Assembly: GCA_963770935.1 (NCBI GenBank)
Contig: CAVYRJ010000014.1
Location: forward strand, 1 to 64,000
Source: Candidatus Bathyarchaeota archaeon
GTDB taxonomy: Archaea > Thermoproteota > Bathyarchaeia > Bathyarchaeales > Bathycorpusculaceae
Direction: 5' to 3'
Length of the DNA stretch: 64,000 nt
Both the position numbers and the translations under genes were made by a program. Numbering within the stretch: the stretch's first letter is position 1; each line of letters opens with the position of its first letter. Below, piece by piece: positions 35,959-62,323 of the stretch. The notes under the pieces were generated by a model, which saw nothing but the letters and a program-made list of their open reading frames with translations, was not told the origin of the DNA and ran no database searches.

Positions 35959-38373
35959 TTGGTTAATCAATTGCCAGTAGAAAAATTACGAAATGTGTGT
36001 GATGCTAGCTTTCTGCATTGTGAATCAACCAAGGACTTGGTTCCACTTAGTGAAATTATCGGTCAAGAAAGAGCTGTCCGTGCCTTAAAATTCGGACTCG
36101 GGATTAAAGACCATGGCTTCAACGTGTATGTGGCGGGGTACCCTGGAACAGGCAGAAAAACTGCGGTCAAAAACTTCGTGGAAGCCCAAGCTAAAACCCA
36201 ACCGGTGCCGCCCGACTGGTGTTACGTGAACAATTTCGGCAACCAATATGAACCAAAAGCTATCAAGCTGCCAGCCGGGAAGGGTAAAGAATTCCGCGAA
36301 GAAATGAAAAACTTTATTGAGGACGTCAAGACGGCGCTTCCGAAGGCTTTTGAAAGCGAAGACTACGTTGCCAGGAGGGAAGCCACAATCAAGGTTTTAG
36401 AGAATCAGCGTAAACAGATAATCGCCGAATTAAGTGTCAAAGCTGAGCGCGAAGGATTTGTAATTCAAACTACCCCAATTGGTATACTGCTTATTCCAGT
36501 GTTAAACGGGAAACCGCTTAGCGAAGAAGAAATGCTTTCGTTACCCCAAAAAACAAAGGACAATATTAACGAGAAAAGAGAAGCATTGGAAACTGAATTC
36601 CGAAATACAATTCGCCAACTAATCGATATGGAACGCAGAATCCACGACGCCTTAAAGAAACTCAACAAGGAAGTTGCTCTTTACGCTCTAGGTAACCAGG
36701 TGGAGAGCCTCATGGAAAAATATCCCGCTAACTCGGAAGTTGTAACTTACCTTAGAGAAGTACAAAACGACATCCTAGATAACCTACAGCAATTCATAAG
36801 GAGAGGCGAACCTGAACAGCAACTGCCGTTTCCTGTGCCCTGGATGAAGGATGAACCCTACAAGAAATACGAGGTGAACATAGTCATCGACAACTCTAAA
36901 ATTGCAGGCGCGCCAGTTGTGGTGGAAACCAACCCAACTTACCATAATTTGCTTGGTAGAACAGAGAAAGAAGCCCAGTTTGGCGCGCTCACAACCGACT
37001 TCAGTATGATCCGTCCGGGAGCTATTCATAGAGCCAACGGCGGCTATCTAATCGTTCCTGTCGAAGACTTGTTGCGAAACCCGCTTTCCTACGACGGTTT
37101 AAAGCGCGACATCAGGGATTCAAAGATGTCAATCGAAGAACCTGAAGAACGTTATGGCTTTTTAAGCATTAAAACTCTTAAGCCTCAGCCTATTCCATTA
37201 ACAGCGAAAGTCATCCTAATTGGCACCCCGTATTTATATCAACTCATGTTCAGTTTAGATCCCGATTTTCATGAACTCTTCAAGATAAAAGCAGAATTTG
37301 ATACAACTATGCCTAGAACTGACGAAAAAGTACTGCAATACGGTGCGTTTGTATGCGGGCTCTGCGAGAGGGAAGGCCTCAAACATCTTGATGGAAGCGG
37401 CTTGGCGAAACTTGTTGAGTACAGTTCAAGGATCATAGAAGACCAATTCAAATTATCGACACAGTTTAACTCCATTGCCGACATCATTCGTGAATCAAAC
37501 TATTATGCGGTACAAGACAATGCCGAGTATATTACTGGAAACAATGTCAAAAAAGCCATTGAAGAAAAGATTTACCGTTCCAGACTAATCCAGGAAAAAA
37601 TTCAGGAGATGATTACCCGCGGCTTTTTCTTGATTGACACAGTTGACCAAAAGGTTGGGCAGGTAAATGGTTTGTCGGTTATAGGGCTGGGAGATTTTGC
37701 TTTTGGTATGCCCTCACGTGTGACCGCAAGCATCGGACTTGGCAGAGAAGGTGTCATGGACATTGAAAGAGAAGCCAAAATGGGTGGACCCATACACACC
37801 AAAGGAGTCCTAATTCTCAGTGGCTACATCACTGACAAATATGCTAGAGACAAACCTTTGAGCCTCTCAGCTAGGTTGGTCTTTGAACAAAACTACGAAG
37901 GGGTCGAAGGCGACAGCGCATCAAGCACAGAACTCTACTCCATACTCTCATCGCTTTCTGGGTTGCCGATTAAACAGAATTTAGCCGTCACAGGTTCAGT
38001 TAATCAGAAAGGAGAAGTCCAGGCGATCGGCGGCGTGAACGAGAAAATCGAGGGCTTCTTTGAAGTGTGCAAAGCCAAAGGATTAACCGGTGAGCAAGGC
38101 GTTATGATTCCTAACAGCAACGTTCAGAATTTGATGCTTAAAGAAGAAGTTGTTGATGCTGTTAAAGCAGGTAAATTTAGCATTTACTCAGTTAAAACAA
38201 TCGATGAAGGCATTGAGGTGTTGACGGGAACAAAAGCGGGGCAGCAACGAGCAGACGGAACTTACGAAGAAGGCACTGTAAATTACTTGGTGGATAAGCA
38301 GTTGCGAGAGATGGCGGAGAAACTTAGAGATTACTCAGGCGTGCAGGCACAACAGAAAAAAATCGTAGACTAA
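35959..38373 (+). CDS. Lon-like protease (LonC/AAA_32 type, no TM)
   Basis: IGQERA, DWCYVNNF, GAIHRANGGYL, VEGDSAS (Ser) and GGVNEKIEG (Lys) dyad. Confidence 0.92.
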   Translation: MVNQLPVEKLRNVCDASFLHCESTKDLVPLSEIIGQERAVRALKFGLGIKDHGFNVYVAGYPGTGRKTAVKNFVEAQAKTQPVPPDWCYVNNFGNQYEPKAIKLPAGKGKEFREEMKNFIEDVKTALPKAFESEDYVARREATIKVLENQRKQIIAELSVKAEREGFVIQTTPIGILLIPVLNGKPLSEEEMLSLPQKTKDNINEKREALETEFRNTIRQLIDMERRIHDALKKLNKEVALYALGNQVESLMEKYPANSEVVTYLREVQNDILDNLQQFIRRGEPEQQLPFPVPWMKDEPYKKYEVNIVIDNSKIAGAPVVVETNPTYHNLLGRTEKEAQFGALTTDFSMIRPGAIHRANGGYLIVPVEDLLRNPLSYDGLKRDIRDSKMSIEEPEERYGFLSIKTLKPQPIPLTAKVILIGTPYLYQLMFSLDPDFHELFKIKAEFDTTMPRTDEKVLQYGAFVCGLCEREGLKHLDGSGLAKLVEYSSRIIEDQFKLSTQFNSIADIIRESNYYAVQDNAEYITGNNVKKAIEEKIYRSRLIQEKIQEMITRGFFLIDTVDQKVGQVNGLSVIGLGDFAFGMPSRVTASIGLGREGVMDIEREAKMGGPIHTKGVLILSGYITDKYARDKPLSLSARLVFEQNYEGVEGDSASSTELYSILSSLSGLPIKQNLAVTGSVNQKGEVQAIGGVNEKIEGFFEVCKAKGLTGEQGVMIPNSNVQNLMLKEEVVDAVKAGKFSIYSVKTIDEGIEVLTGTKAGQQRADGTYEEGTVNYLVDKQLREMAEKLRDYSGVQAQQKKIVD

Positions 38374-38499: not shown

Positions 38500-38736
38500 T
38501 TGGTTTATCAAAAAGTTAAACCCAAGCGCAGCAAAGCGCTCATTATTATGCTTCTTCCAGCACTCATTTTCATAGCTGTCGTTGGATGGTTCATGTACTC
38601 TATAGACAATAAAAATTCAACAGGCCGAAAACAAACACACAGAAGAACAGTCGAAGAACGCAACGTAACCCTACTGCCCATCGATTTTGAAGAACAACGG
38701 CAAATTAGAATCAATAATGCTATTAGAAACCGCTAA
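38500..38736 (+). CDS. small single-TM protein
   Basis: AGGTG RBS, TTG start, one hydrophobic helix. Confidence 0.6.
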   Translation: MVYQKVKPKRSKALIIMLLPALIFIAVVGWFMYSIDNKNSTGRKQTHRRTVEERNVTLLPIDFEEQRQIRINNAIRNR

Positions 38737-38842
38737 TTCTTAGTTATTTGCCAATTTTTAATTTCCTTTTGCAATTGGGCTCGCATGCTTGTTGTTACTA
38801 TAGCACAACCACAACTCCATTTATAGTCGACAAATATTTGTT

Positions 38843-38996
38843 CTCTTGCGAGAAATAGCCATCCAAGAGGTACACCCACGCTTGACGGGTCAGCCGTTAA
38901 CCATGATGCGCATCGTTCTACCCCTAAAGAAGGATTAGGGACCTATTTCTGATCCGCGTCTTGGGTTAACTCTGGCGATCCGTCAAGCCTACTTTT
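38843..38996 (+). ncRNA. candidate structured RNA or palindromic element, copy 1
   Basis: TTTATA at 38820; small hairpin CTCTTG/CAAGAG; 109-nt hairpin 38880-38988; TTTT after. Confidence 0.55.
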
Positions 38997-39082
38997 AGTT
39001 ACAGCGGTCGCTAATGGTGTAATTAGTTTCTAGTATATAATTTATAAGGTTTAAGATGCAATGCTACCTTTCGTGAGCCACT

Positions 39083-39442
39083 TTGAGCTATAAAGAACGC
39101 ATGCATCCAAAAGTCAGCCGGGCAGAAATAGAAGTTTTTAAATCATTAAGTATGGCTGGGTTAACCAGCGGCATGGTAACACAGCAACCGATCATCCTCA
39201 AATCAACCATACCTGACTTCTGCTGGATGGAAAAACGCAAAATCGTCTATTTAGATGGCAAACCTGTTCACAGAAAAGACAAACAAATCGAACGCGACGA
39301 AGAAATCGATAACCTCTTAACCGCTCAAGGATGGGATGTCCTGCGTATTCCCTACGACCCACCCATAACACAGAAGGGCTTAGAGAAGATTATGGTAACC
39401 ATAAAACAGTTCCTCAACATAGATGAAGAAGTTATAGAATAG
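39083..39442 (+). CDS. DUF559/Vsr-like PD-(D/E)XK endonuclease domain protein
   Basis: S.AE, PDF, VYLDG..H, RD..ID..L...GWDVLRI. Confidence 0.75.
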   Translation: MSYKERMHPKVSRAEIEVFKSLSMAGLTSGMVTQQPIILKSTIPDFCWMEKRKIVYLDGKPVHRKDKQIERDEEIDNLLTAQGWDVLRIPYDPPITQKGLEKIMVTIKQFLNIDEEVIE

Positions 39443-40541
39443 CCCTTTTGGGTTAACCGCCTTCTTTTTCAGTTTTTCGCATTATTAATTTTAATACTTT
39501 CCTGCTCTGCAATATGCTTGGGGCAAAAGGTTGACTTCTTAAAAATACTATTGTTTGTCTGAACTTATCGGGCACTTTTAACTTCTTGCGTCATGGTCAA
39601 TTGAAGTTTGTGCGTTTCGCTCAGGGAATAAAACTCAGTAAAAATGACATCAAATGTTTTTTGATGGAAAAGGCAGTAAGCGATGTAAAGTACTCTCTGA
39701 AAATCCCTCATGACCACAACCCCTTTGATATTACATACCCATTCTATCAGAACAAGCGTCCATGACCATAGTTGTTGAAAAATTGAAAATAGTTAATAGA
39801 ATGCAAAAATCTTTCAAAGAAGCAAGTTAGACCACAGTCTTTCGCAAGATTGGCTCGAGTAAGAACATTGTCAAAAGACTTCTTTTTCTAATTGCTTATT
39901 ACTGGATGCTGTTATTACTCGTGACAAAAAGACTTTTCGCGCTGGGTAATTTCACAGTATCTACTAACCAAAGGGTTTAACAGGTTAAAACACAGAAGTG
40001 CTTTTGGCGGATTTGAAAATGGTATCAAAAAATTCTAATGTTGGTAAGCTTTTTGATTTTAGCGAAAACGGATATGGCATAGTAACCCATGAAGCAAGAG
40101 TAGACTATAAAACTTGGTCACCTGTTATTCACATTTTGAAGTTTACAGATGATAAACATAAAGAACCGGACAACAAATTAAAATCTCGCTAAATATTTTT
40201 TTTGAACAGATATTGTGCATATTATGGAGTAGAAAAGCGTTCTTGATAGCAAAATTAATCAAAGCATCGACTGATTAGCAACCAAAATCTCTACTTCTGA
40301 CCAGAATATAGAGGCAAGTTAGTCTGATTCAGTTTTCTTTAAAACTAAATACCATACTGTTCCAGCAAAGTGCATTGTCGATGCCTTAGCTGAAAAGCGT
40401 TCTGAACCGCTAAGTAGACCAAGTAGAGAGAGAGCATTAAATTTTAATCCAACCAACCAAAACTACGACCTTTTGCCATGTTACCAGTGTTAAAAAACAG
40501 TCGGGGTTGGTTGCAGAAGGTTAGGATAGTTAACTTACGGT

Positions 40542-40637
40542 TGAGGGATAAAAAATAAACAATTATTTATCCCTCATAAAATAAGAAAGTTAATAATACA
40601 ACAGAAGTAAAAAACAACAGAATACTTACCCTCATAA
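40542..40637. repeat. 11-bp inverted repeat plus an extra half-site
   Basis: TGAGGGATAAA (40542-40552) / TTTATCCCTCA (40566-40576); CTTACCCTCATAA at 40625-40637. Confidence 0.6.
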
Positions 40638-40869
40638 TTAAAAATAAAATAACCTTATTGGAAGTAAAAGAGATAAGAAAACTTAACCCTTCGAAAAATA
40701 TGCATTCAAATTCCAATATCAACTTGAAGAAGGACAGGCATTATTCAGGGAGCGTCGCTCAAAAGTCTCTGAACAGCAATGACCACAGAAATTGGCATGA
40801 AGAGTGTTCCATTTTGGAACAACCCACTGTTTGCTTGTTCTTTGAGTTCTCATGTGTTCTCGTTGCATA

Positions 40870-41029
40870 GATTTTGATGGCTGTCATAATTTCAACCAAT
40901 AGGAAAAACACATCTGAAGGTACTTCAGCACTGTGGACAACTGACACCAACCTTATCGACGTGCTGAGAGGATACTTTGAGACCGCCTGGAATGAATCCG
41001 AAGAACTAATAAAAGCAACAAGCAACTAA
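40870..41029 (+). pseudogene. C-terminal remnant of a TrmB-like regulator
   Basis: SALWTTDTNLIDVLRGYFETAWNES resembles the TrmB-family C-terminus; upstream part interrupted by a stop. Confidence 0.5.
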
Positions 41030-41103
41030 AGTAGCTTTCAATAACAAACTATTCAGTAAAAGATTTATTCTAAGTAGGTAGGCTCTTCGACAAGTAACTC
41101 TGA

Positions 41104-41277
41104 CTATTCAAGTTCTTCACTTGAAACAAGAATTGTGGGGTACTGTTTTGAAACCCCTGATTTGTCACCTGTTTTATTATGGCCTTCCCTACATCTCATT
41201 CCGTATCTTGTTTTAGTTGCATTTTCCCAAACTTTTTCAGTTGATCCACCACATATTGGGCACTTAAAATTTTTCAT
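41104..41277 (-). CDS. 57-aa zinc-ribbon microprotein (below ORF-track cutoff)
   Basis: MKNFKCPICGGSTEKVWENATKTRYGMRCREGH...; GGTGA RBS upstream. Confidence 0.7.
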   Translation of the reverse strand: MKNFKCPICGGSTEKVWENATKTRYGMRCREGHNKTGDKSGVSKQYPTILVSSEELE

Positions 41278-41514
41278 TTATTTTCACCAAAACCAAAAAA
41301 GTCAAAAGTAAATAAGTCGTTGCTGTGTTTTCCCAAGTTCTTCCGCTCTGTATGTGTATTGTTGGCTTGTTTCTTTAAGCCTTCCTATCGGTTTTTCCTT
41401 CTTCTTTGTGAGAAGCTCTCCTTTCTCCTCAAATAAAGAAATCGCATCTAAGGGTTAAAAGGCATATTTCAGAGTTGGAATATATCAAAATCTATTTTTC
41501 ACTTAAATTTTAGC

Positions 41515-41661
41515 TTAAGTTATAGTTCTGTATTGTGTTTTTGAACGTGAAAATGATTTACTGCAACAACCACAAACATATGCTTCAAGAATAAATAAAT
41601 GATTACTTAATAACCTGGCAGGTTTCGCTATTTCTCTACCACAATTAAGACACTTAGCCAC
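41515..41661 (-). CDS. 48-aa zinc-ribbon microprotein (below ORF-track cutoff)
   Basis: GTG start; MAKCLNCGREIAKPARLLSNHLFILEAYVCGCCSKSFSRSKTQYRTIT. Confidence 0.65.
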   Translation of the reverse strand: MAKCLNCGREIAKPARLLSNHLFILEAYVCGCCSKSFSRSKTQYRTIT

Positions 41662-41982
41662 ACGTCAACCCTACCCCATTTGAATTAAGGATAAAAACTC
41701 ATGTGACTACAAAAGGAAACAACAAGTCCCAGTCGAGCAAGTATCTGGAAAACTTTTTCACTCTTTCCTTTTTTATGTTTCTAGATCTAGCTATTTTTAG
41801 TTAAATATTGGCAGTTATTTGAATAAAGCAAAACTCAAAATTACACGTTTCGGGCACTCAATGTAAGACAAATTAAGAACAAAGTGCTATATAATTTAGG
41901 TGAATGTTTTGCGTAAACAACACAGACCAGAAGGAATGACAACCTCCCCAAACAAGGGCAGTATAGCAAGAAAAGCAAATGC

Positions 41983-42042
41983 CGCCAATCGTTCGAGACA
42001 GAAGCAAGCCAACGCCAATCGTTCGAGACAGACCCAAGCCGA
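41983..42042 (+). repeat. 30-bp tandem duplication
   Basis: CGCCAATCGTTCGAGACAGAAGCAAGCCAA / CGCCAATCGTTCGAGACAGACCCAAGCCGA. Confidence 0.85.
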
Positions 42043-42199
42043 CAATTCAAGGAAGTAAAACAGCTTTTAGCAAAATACCAAAAACATCATAGTTGAATGT
42101 AAACATTCGTCTGTGTCTTGTTTGCGGGTTACTGTCAAGTCGGTGCGTCCTAACAGTAAATTCAGAGAAAAGTACACATCAACTATTTACTATTATTAG

Positions 42200-42406
42200 T
42201 TAGTTTTTGGGTGTCTCTTCATTTGAAATGGGTAAAAACGTCTCAATTCTTTTGTTGGTTTTTTGATTTTTCTTTTGGACCTCTTTGAGTCTATATTTGG
42301 AGTCTGTTTTGGGTGTTAAGCTATATGTTTTGGATTTTTTTGTTGTCATTTCTTTTCTGCCTCTAAAAATTTTTTGATTCGAAGAATTTGATTTCTTATC
42401 GGGCAT
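42200..42406 (-). CDS. small Lys-rich hypothetical protein
   Basis: ORF; more likely start is the internal MTTKKSK after AGAGG. Confidence 0.4.
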   Translation of the reverse strand: MPDKKSNSSNQKIFRGRKEMTTKKSKTYSLTPKTDSKYRLKEVQKKNQKTNKRIETFLPISNEETPKN

Positions 42407-42514
42407 GGAAACATTGTTTCCATTAATCCCTTATCTGAGGTGGTAGTGTATAAGCAGTTTTCGGTTTCGTATATTTCGCAGGGCGGAGGGGATTAAATTT
42501 TAAATAAAAAAATT

Positions 42515-42727
42515 CTATGGCGTGGAAATAGTCAAATAGTTGTTGTTCATTTTGCATGACAACTCTCGTTTTCTTACAAATAGTGCAATTGCGTGGCGGT
42601 CATAATCGCCTCTAATCTGCAATCTATATCTGTCTGGTTCTTTGTGTTCAATAAGAACTAACTTGGGATTAACAAGTTTGTTAGCTCCTAATTCATTTAA
42701 TAAAACTGTTGCCTCTTCCTTCTTCAT
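42515..42727 (-). CDS. hypothetical protein
   Basis: 70-aa ORF with alpha/beta pattern. Confidence 0.6.
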   Translation of the reverse strand: MKKEEATVLLNELGANKLVNPKLVLIEHKEPDRYRLQIRGDYDRHAIALFVRKRELSCKMNNNYLTISTP

Positions 42728-42930
42728 GTGCTTTTCCCCATGTCGACAATGAGCAGTACAAGATTAAGATTATGCAATTGGATCAAAAAACTAATGGATT
42801 GATTCTGGCAAAAGAAAGTACATGTGGCTGACCTGACCCAAGTCTTTTTTTTAAATAAATTTTAAGCGCAAAAGCAAGCGATACAAAGGCTTAAAACGCC
42901 ACTCTGGCAATATATTTTCTGACAGCGATC

Positions 42931-61876: not shown

Positions 61877-62032
61877 ATTCTACATTTCCTTGATTCGAGT
61901 AGTCACTAAAACTGTTAATTTCAATATAAACATATCCGTTTTAAGGTAGTTGTTCTCCAGTTCGAATTATCGTTTTAAGTATGGATTTAACGATGTTTTC
62001 TCTAATAGGACGCTTGATAATGTTTGGGGAGC

Positions 62033-62167
62033 AAAAAGGTTTGTTAAGCGGATTTAGCCGTGGGCTAGCATCAAGGGGCGCAAAAGTAATTAACTGTCGC
62101 CTTCTTTTTGTTAGCCGCCAGACCCGCTCAACTGTTGGCTCTTAGTAAATTGCTTTCTCACTACCCC
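62033..62167 (-). ncRNA. candidate structured RNA or palindromic element, copy 2
   Basis: CTTATAT at 62190-62184 (minus strand); TAGTGAG/TTTACTA hairpin; 90-nt hairpin 62043-62132; TTTTT after; sequence similarity to copy 1. Confidence 0.5.
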
Positions 62168-62323
62168 ATAACGATTCGATTTGATATAAGGCAATGTTGT
62201 TACATAATGAAGCAACAATTGCTATGTTCTTTACTGATTTTTCTAAGAACAAAATATGGAATTATACGTGTAATATGGGAAAAATAATAAGTGCCTGCTC
62301 AGCGAATGGTTATTGATAGCTGT

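Follow-up and report, generated by a model that had tools for sequence, protein, structure and literature searches.

A candidate multi-copy family of ~150-nt structured RNAs in Bathyarchaeia

Copy 1 and its neighbourhood

The DNA analysed here (the window) is a stretch of 64,000 nucleotides from a Candidatus Bathyarchaeota archaeon. Within the window, lonB (35959-38373, + strand) is followed by a DUF559 gene (39083-39442, +), and the unit referred to as copy 1 lies between them. From 5′ to 3′, copy 1 is made up of a predicted promoter, an unpaired leader, a rod-shaped hairpin and a short tail that includes a T-run. The promoter (38807-38827, +) consists of a conserved block, CAACCACAAC..CA, then TTTATA (38820-38825). 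Its columns are invariant or nearly invariant in 19 orthologues, and the spacer 3′ of the block varies; the upstream part of the 19-sequence alignment reads CACAAC..CATTTATA, then the variable spacer. The GAGAAA motif (38850-38855) is found in the window sequence 30 nt past the TATA box, as the initial annotation of this DNA, made from the sequence alone, had described. The start was placed by the distance usual in archaea between TATA box and transcription start, and the transcript of copy 1 is predicted to begin at or near 38848. The leader, GCGAGAAATAGCCATCCAAGAGGTACACCCAC, then covers 38848-38879 (+). Here the 19 orthologues share an almost invariant 31-nt block, GCGAGAAATAGCCATCCAAGAGGTACACCCA, found ~28 nt past the TATA box (start of box to start of block), whereas their overall identity is 72-90 %. 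One metagenome relative differs within the leader, with CTGAAAGG instead of CCAAGAGG.

The hairpin occupies 109 nt (38880-38988, +). Its basal 12-bp helix pairs GCTTGACGGGTC (38880-38891) with GATCCGTCAAGC (38977-38988), and is followed by the GC/GC, GTTAAC, GATGCG/CGCGTC and ATC/GAT helices. Both the sequence and the minimum free energy fold agree with the rod and the helices proposed in the initial annotation. Near the apex is a small hairpin, CCCTAA/TTAGGG (38922-38940, +), that is specific to the copy-1 subfamily and missing from relatives of the second unit (copy 2, see below). Three of its pairs were scored, and they are CG in 19/19 sequences, CG in 16 and UG in 3, and CG in 7, UA in 6 and UG in 3. 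Immediately 5′ of the descending strand is a U-rich segment, CTATTTCTGAT (38943-38953, +), for which most orthologues have (C/T)TATTTTTGAT; T148, T149, T151, G152 and T154 are invariant. The tail, CTACTTTTAG (38989-38998, +), is conserved among orthologues and contains the TTTT already reported, at 38993-38996. As oligo-T is a termination signal for archaeal RNA polymerase, this T-run is a probable terminator. RNA folding of 38820-39000 gave −60.6 kcal/mol (z = −4.3), and 1 of 200 shuffled sequences was as stable.

Covariation was scored on alignment A2, which comprises the 19 copy-1 sequences aligned with MAFFT and not fitted to the structure, with 35 pairs named by hand. The sequence of the hairpin drifts among the orthologues and the pairs are maintained; 93.2 % are paired and 15 of the 35 show changes on both sides. 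A comparison with shuffled controls had been suggested in the initial annotation, and none of 500 shuffles matched any of five measures or reached the covariation of the 35-pair structure. When the partners were moved by 1-3 columns, pairing fell to 21-47 %. The named strand has many G-U pairs (e.g. GU in 18/19 and 17/19 sequences at two pairs), which extends to the orthologues the earlier assignment of the wobble pairs to the + strand. As G-U pairs are common on the + strand, the folded molecule appears to be an RNA read from that strand. A further small hairpin, CTCTTG/CAAGAG, had been placed ahead of the rod. The sequence is present, but it is not supported as a conserved structure, as its 5′ arm varies without compensation (TATCTTG, TTAATTG or TAATTTG in orthologues) and its 3′ arm is invariant. 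This 5′ arm also lies at or before the predicted transcription start.

No match to a known RNA family was found at either unit when the window was scanned with Rfam 15 at gathering thresholds, the only matches being three tRNAs. A scan of 38500-39300 up to E = 10 gave two chance matches, both outside the element. A full-text literature search on non-coding or structured RNAs of Bathyarchaeia/Bathyarchaeota found no paper on such RNAs in the portions of text that were accessible.

Public RNA data touch the locus. Three runs labelled as RNA contain small shares of a 5-kb stretch, and one of them is probably DNA. In one metatranscriptome, a contig of depth 2 covers 38875-39039 and so extends beyond the T-run by 43 nt; there is also coverage of the neighbouring genes, DNA carry-over or read-through is possible, and start, end and strand are not readable from contigs.

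Downstream of the DUF559 gene, the 3.5 kb at 39450-42930 contain no ORF of 90 aa or more and no Rfam match. Five sub-blocks of 150-370 nt within this region are 79-91 % identical to dispersed sites in relatives, often several per genome, and some of these sites have a member of the RNA family described below no more than a few kb away. At least two of the blocks hold small ORFs, namely a 57-aa ORF with CxxC motifs (41104-41277, −) and a small basic ORF (41900-42058, +). From its sequence, the region looks like an island of small genes.

Copy 2 and the extent of the family

The second unit, copy 2, is on the opposite strand at 62033-62203 (−), and has the organization of a paralogous gene with a promoter block, GTAACAACATT (62203-62193), TTATAT (62189-62184), a leader (~62166-62133), a hairpin (62132-62043) and a T-run (62037-62033). 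The region 62025-62200 (−) folds into a long hairpin (z = −3.4; 0/200 shuffles as stable). The rpS8e gene is 157 nt downstream in the same orientation, and the SRP19 gene adjoins the unit. Using BLAST with E ≤ 1e-7, relatives of copy 2 were found in 12 of 24 genomes of the genus, with up to four per genome, and they have a similar promoter block, (G/T)AAC(A/C)ACA(T/A)T..TTATAT.

Plain alignment using MAFFT and blastn-short revealed no meaningful link between the two units in the window, and BLAST found no near-identical copies of the unit in this genome. A covariance model, R1, was built from 20 copy-2 relatives (alignment A5, 22 consensus pairs) and does not include any copy-1 sequence. In the 64-kb window, the top R1 match is copy 2 (62033-62159, −), with 119.2 bits on the named strand versus 21.5 bits on the reverse strand. 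Copy 1 (38849-38998, +) is recovered over the full length of the model with 25.3 bits (E 1.2e-4) and ranks second of the 16 matches listed, and the best unrelated match scores 14.6 bits. R1 also recovers 9 of the 19 copy-1 orthologues at the expected positions. Both copies have the leader motif AAGAG, the words TTG(R)CGGGTC, TAAC and RATCCG, and two T-runs, one preceding the descending strand and one terminal. Judged by the sequence model, copies 1 and 2 are homologous members of one family; the initial annotation had already recognized the same blocks in a unit at 62033-62190 (−), and the R1 match to copy 1 bears this out.

Copy 1 is among the sequences from which a second model, R2, was built, and the match of R2 to copy 1 is therefore by construction. 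With R2, there are four clear members in this genome, the two in the window (C14:62033-62159 and C14:38849-38998) and one each on two other contigs (C8:223021-223152 and C4:27155-27281). The covariance-model search that had been recommended thus found further homologues, and there are up to seven members in a relative. A borderline fifth member (C13:44751-44894, 24.4 bits with R2) has the family layout. At this locus (L134, G000:C13:43251-46394), a DDE (IS4/IS5-type) transposase gene lies ~200 nt away from the member, and a gene with a ParB N-terminal domain adjoins it.

The family layout consists of a promoter with an AAC(A/C)ACA block and a TATA box, an unpaired leader of ~25-35 nt, and a body that is an irregular rod hairpin of 90-110 nt with a U-run in the 3′ part of its apical loop, followed by a terminal T-run. 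The strands of the basal helix are G(C)TTG(R)CGGGTC and RATCCG(Y)YAA(G/C). In an alignment of 76 members, 18 of 22 pairs show compensatory changes; this alignment was fitted to the model, which favours the structure. A TATA-like hexamer is present no more than 70 nt upstream in 66 of the 76 aligned members, and a T-run of at least 4 at the 3′ end also in 66/76. The apical region contains a T-run of at least 4 in 68/76 members and of at least 5 in 47/76, and in 56 of the 68 the run stops 11-13 nt short of the end of the apical region. Within an orthologue group the leader is conserved, and between paralogues it differs.

Three units in one relative (L052, L057 and L061 in G114) are ~250-260 nt long and 89-94 % identical, with unrelated flanks. 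Each consists of the RNA plus ~125 nt upstream that includes a palindrome, ATATTTCGTAATT(G/C)GAAATAT, and they are without the usual TATA block and without the 3′ T-run.

By BLAST, 18 of the 24 other genomes examined in the genus have one orthologue of copy 1 each, and none was detected in 16 genomes from other families in the order. Most orthologous loci have lonB on one side and an ORF of 117-143 aa for a DUF559 protein on the other. In one of them (L005, G023), LonB is split into a 203-aa ORF (AAA-LID) and a 119-aa ORF (Lon_C), and a frameshift or local decay is possible. Over 121 genomes of the order (55 genera), matches to R1 are confined to the genus, namely this genome and 5 of 10 others, with up to seven copies, and as 22-28 candidates were scored per genome the absences are weak. 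Over 151 genomes of the class (79 genera), and with the same number of candidates per genome and the same weakness of absences, R2 found members in this genome, in 2 of 5 others in the genus and in one genome of a sister genus. The sister-genus relative (26.2 bits) is copy-1-like and lies between ilvC and trm1.

A scan of 185,579 species genomes for exact 17-mers gave 47 loci. Of these, 33 pass R1 and all 33 are in archaeal records, 32 titled Candidatus Bathyarchaeota or Bathyarchaeia and one 'uncultured archaeon'; the remaining 14 are bacterial chance matches. None of 11 IMG/VR contigs that share a 17-mer passes the model. In a metagenome scan with a 15-mer from the basal helix, at least two members were present among the 80 matches listed. 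The confirmed members are thus all from Bathyarchaeota/Bathyarchaeia, almost all from one genus, and the family is most likely restricted to a small group of peat and wetland archaea.

Two identical members in G004 (L031 and L032, at ~1880-2063 and 10183-10366 of contig C4) are in inverted orientation ~8 kb apart, each with an ArsR/DUF7347 gene and a Nop5 gene as its neighbours, and this pair is an inverted segmental duplication or an assembly artefact. In one relative, two members are ~300-400 nt apart at two loci, in tandem at L030 (1488-1617 and 1892-2043, +) and in opposite orientation at L038 (1500-1629, −, and 2030-2162, +).

Identity of the element and alternative explanations

The region 38807-38998 (+) is probably a free-standing gene for a structured RNA of ~150 nt, predicted from its sequence to be transcribed, which belongs to a real and previously undescribed multi-copy family of Bathyarchaeia. 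The initial annotation had left the choice between a small RNA family and a short palindromic mobile unit. A small RNA family is favoured by the conserved, syntenic orthologues, by strong strand-specific covariation, by the position of the conserved block ~28 nt past the TATA box, and by the lack of a match in Rfam and of a paper on such RNAs in the literature search. The alternative, that the units are short non-autonomous mobile or selfish palindromic DNAs resembling MITEs, with the hairpin a DNA feature or by-product, is improbable. The units are dispersed and multi-copy, as such elements would be; G114 has its three very similar units with unrelated flanks, another relative has the identical inverted pair, and one member in this genome is close to a DDE transposase gene. 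However, when the three recent copies (89-94 % identity) were aligned with their flanks, no terminal inverted repeats or target duplications were found at their borders, and near-identical copies are absent from this genome. Transposase families matched none of 82 flanking ORFs scanned (from 26 of 40 member loci), though a DDE transposase was found at one of two further loci. Copy 1 is single-copy and syntenic in 18 genomes, and none of the 11 viral contigs with a shared 17-mer passed the model. In addition, G-U pairs on one strand only, together with frequent compensatory changes, point to selection on an RNA. The family does share with MITEs and palindromic repeats the character of short, dispersed, hairpin-forming units present in several copies, but it differs from them in having no terminal repeats or target duplications, a low copy number, syntenic orthologues and RNA-type covariation with strand-specific G-U pairs.

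It is quite improbable that copy 1 is instead a cis element of a neighbour, serving either lonB as a 3′ structure or terminator or the DUF559 gene as a 5′ leader or attenuator, with rpS8e as the corresponding gene for copy 2. The position of copy 1 between lonB and a DUF559 gene of the same orientation in most orthologous loci would fit this, as would the 157 nt between copy 2 and the similarly oriented rpS8e and the RNA-library contig that runs past the T-run. Against it, every unit comes with a conserved promoter block and a T-run of its own, and paralogues adjoin unrelated genes, often in antisense or divergent orientation. At L005, no DUF559 ORF of at least 80 aa is found downstream of copy 1, and the sister-genus relative has ilvC and trm1 as neighbours.

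Several known classes were also considered. C/D box sRNAs have a box C (RUGAUGA) and a box D (CUGA) with a kink-turn next to the terminal stem, and H/ACA sRNAs have an ACA (ANA) box directly 3′ of the guide hairpin, an upper stem that contains a kink-turn or kink-loop, and pocket strands that complement rRNA or tRNA on either side of a target uridine. A very divergent guide RNA of either type that is missed by the Rfam models would be consistent with stand-alone multi-copy genes, several beside S8e, S19e, L31e, eIF6 and Nop5, and with the internal loops of the hairpin. Copy 1 of this genome contains ATGATGC and CTGA, and many copy-2 relatives have ACA, ACU or ACG in a 4-nt bulge just 3′ of the GTTAGC helix. 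The words resembling boxes C and D are, however, not conserved, and orthologues read CATGACGCG, CGAGACGCG or CAAGGCGCG, and TTTTTGAT, at the same columns, while the bulge triplet varies (ACA, ACU, CCA, GCA, GUA, AUU). By inspection, no pair of tandem G-A motifs that could form a kink-turn was seen in either alignment. Downstream of the basal helix, copy 1 has the tail CTAC, whereas the tail of copy 2 is AAAC, TAAC, CCAC or a similar sequence. The leader has no significant complementarity to rRNA. We know of no counterpart in the H/ACA or C/D classes to a basal helix of at least 15 bp. This assignment is very improbable. The same types of gene provide a broader comparison, as H/ACA and C/D guide sRNAs are likewise multi-copy, stand-alone genes of stable-RNA type, often among translation genes and with a hairpin containing internal loops; the family differs in having no conserved ACA, C or D boxes, no kink-turn that could be seen, a long basal helix and a leader that does not complement rRNA.

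A reduced RNase P or SRP RNA was suggested by the lack of a match to RF00373 in this 91 %-complete genome, by the position of copy 2 next to the SRP19 gene, and by GAGAAA, which we take to resemble the conserved GAGGAAAG of RNase P RNA. This can be given almost no probability and was rejected. A canonical SRP RNA (RF01857, 150.2 bits) is present in this genome at C8:290903-291217, and this model has no match at the element. Of 30 other genomes of the genus, 24 have a canonical RNase P RNA that scores above the cut-off, among them G001, G002, G003 and G012, which also hold copy 1. In addition, the family is multi-copy, and RNase P RNA has a single gene per genome. The RNase P RNA missing from this assembly probably lies in the unassembled part of the genome. 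The initial placement of the element outside the SRP, RNase P and C/D patterns is therefore upheld by the Rfam scans, by the canonical SRP and RNase P RNAs elsewhere and by the unconserved boxes. A small protein-coding gene, with AAGAGGT as the ribosome-binding site and translation starting from TTG or ATG where the hairpin begins, is hardly credible. Some orthologues do have a GAGGT word 6-10 nt before TTG or ATG, but there is no conserved start codon, with ACG, ATG, AAG and ATA all found in that column. The hairpin also has indels whose lengths are not divisible by three, and substitutions track base pairs and not codons.

Possible function and significance

The copies neighbour housekeeping genes that vary from copy to copy. 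Five of ~12 distinct loci adjoin genes for translation or ribosome biogenesis (S8e/SRP19, S19e, L31e/eIF6, Nop5), which is a hint at most. The RNA may act in trans within an RNA-protein particle, with the rod and U-run as a scaffold and the leader as a specificity element; this is a tentative proposal. The conserved, single-stranded apical U-run would be a putative binding site for an Sm-like (LSM) protein, and the leader, through base pairing with another RNA or through protein binding, would determine the specificity of each copy. Conservation of the leader among orthologues and its difference between paralogues is the pattern of a specificity region. The Sm-site consensus is A-U4-6-G, and TATTTTTGA in most copy-1 orthologues is a match to this motif only. 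There are three genes for LSM-domain proteins in this genome, but LSM proteins are present in most archaea and their presence here discriminates nothing. The U5 run inside the gene might alternatively be a partial terminator.

Complementarity of the leader to 16S and 23S rRNA with 400-500 nt of flank was at best 10 contiguous nt (16S) and 8 nt (23S), and 4-26 of 30 shuffles were equal. In two relatives assembled as single contigs (G003 and G014), the 16S and 23S rRNA genes are unlinked and far apart, and no 16S gene was found in this assembly. Genome-wide, there are 40 non-self 11-mers complementary to the leader, a weak excess over the 12-28 in only five shuffles, and none of the sites is at a gene start. 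One recurring complementary site, ATGGCTATTTC, is found at five non-self places, none of them at a true start codon. A pseudoknot between leader and apical loop was rejected, as cognate leader-loop duplexes had no advantage among 20 paralogues (−6.16 kcal/mol for cognate versus −6.12 kcal/mol for non-cognate combinations). A regulon sharing the promoter was also rejected; the loose pattern has 36 matches in the genome, five of which are family members, versus 51 in the reversed sequence. On visual inspection, the promoter block was not seen upstream of 27 tRNA genes.

Among characterized RNAs, the trans-acting small RNAs bound by Sm-like proteins (bacterial Hfq-dependent sRNAs and archaeal SmAP/LSM-associated RNAs) share several features with the family, namely their own promoter, a single-stranded 5′ region conserved among orthologues, a structured 3′ body, a single-stranded U-rich site, a terminal U-run, and sibling paralogues with a common scaffold and differing 5′ regions. 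The body of the family differs in being one long rod of ~45-50 bp rather than short hairpins, and its U-run is apical; the family has no sequence relation to any Rfam family. Bacterial 6S RNA is similar in that a long irregular hairpin makes up most of the molecule and the structure is more conserved than the sequence. The family differs from 6S RNA in lacking a large central bubble, in having a long unpaired 5′ leader and more than one paralogue in a genome, and in its archaeal host, and there is no match to 6S RNA in Rfam.

A more specific reading, which is rather unlikely as things stand, is that the family is a new class of archaeal guide or specificity RNAs, in which a dedicated protein (Sm-like or of another kind) would be recruited by the constant rod scaffold with its U-run loop, and the paralogue-specific leader would direct the particle to different RNA or DNA targets. 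The logic would be comparable to that of C/D, H/ACA and CRISPR RNAs, to which the family would be unrelated. If this is true, the location of several copies in ribosomal-protein and ribosome-biogenesis clusters would suggest a function in translation or ribosome assembly.

The Bathyarchaeia, which are still uncultured, abound in peat, wetland and sediment, and to our knowledge almost nothing is known about their non-coding RNAs. The narrow range of the family, essentially one genus plus one weak sister-genus relative, limits the present weight of the finding. A structured RNA family with a promoter, paralogues and a near-invariant leader nevertheless provides a handle for Rfam curation and for reading metatranscriptomes, and it permits testing whether archaea use sibling small RNAs with a common protein-binding scaffold.
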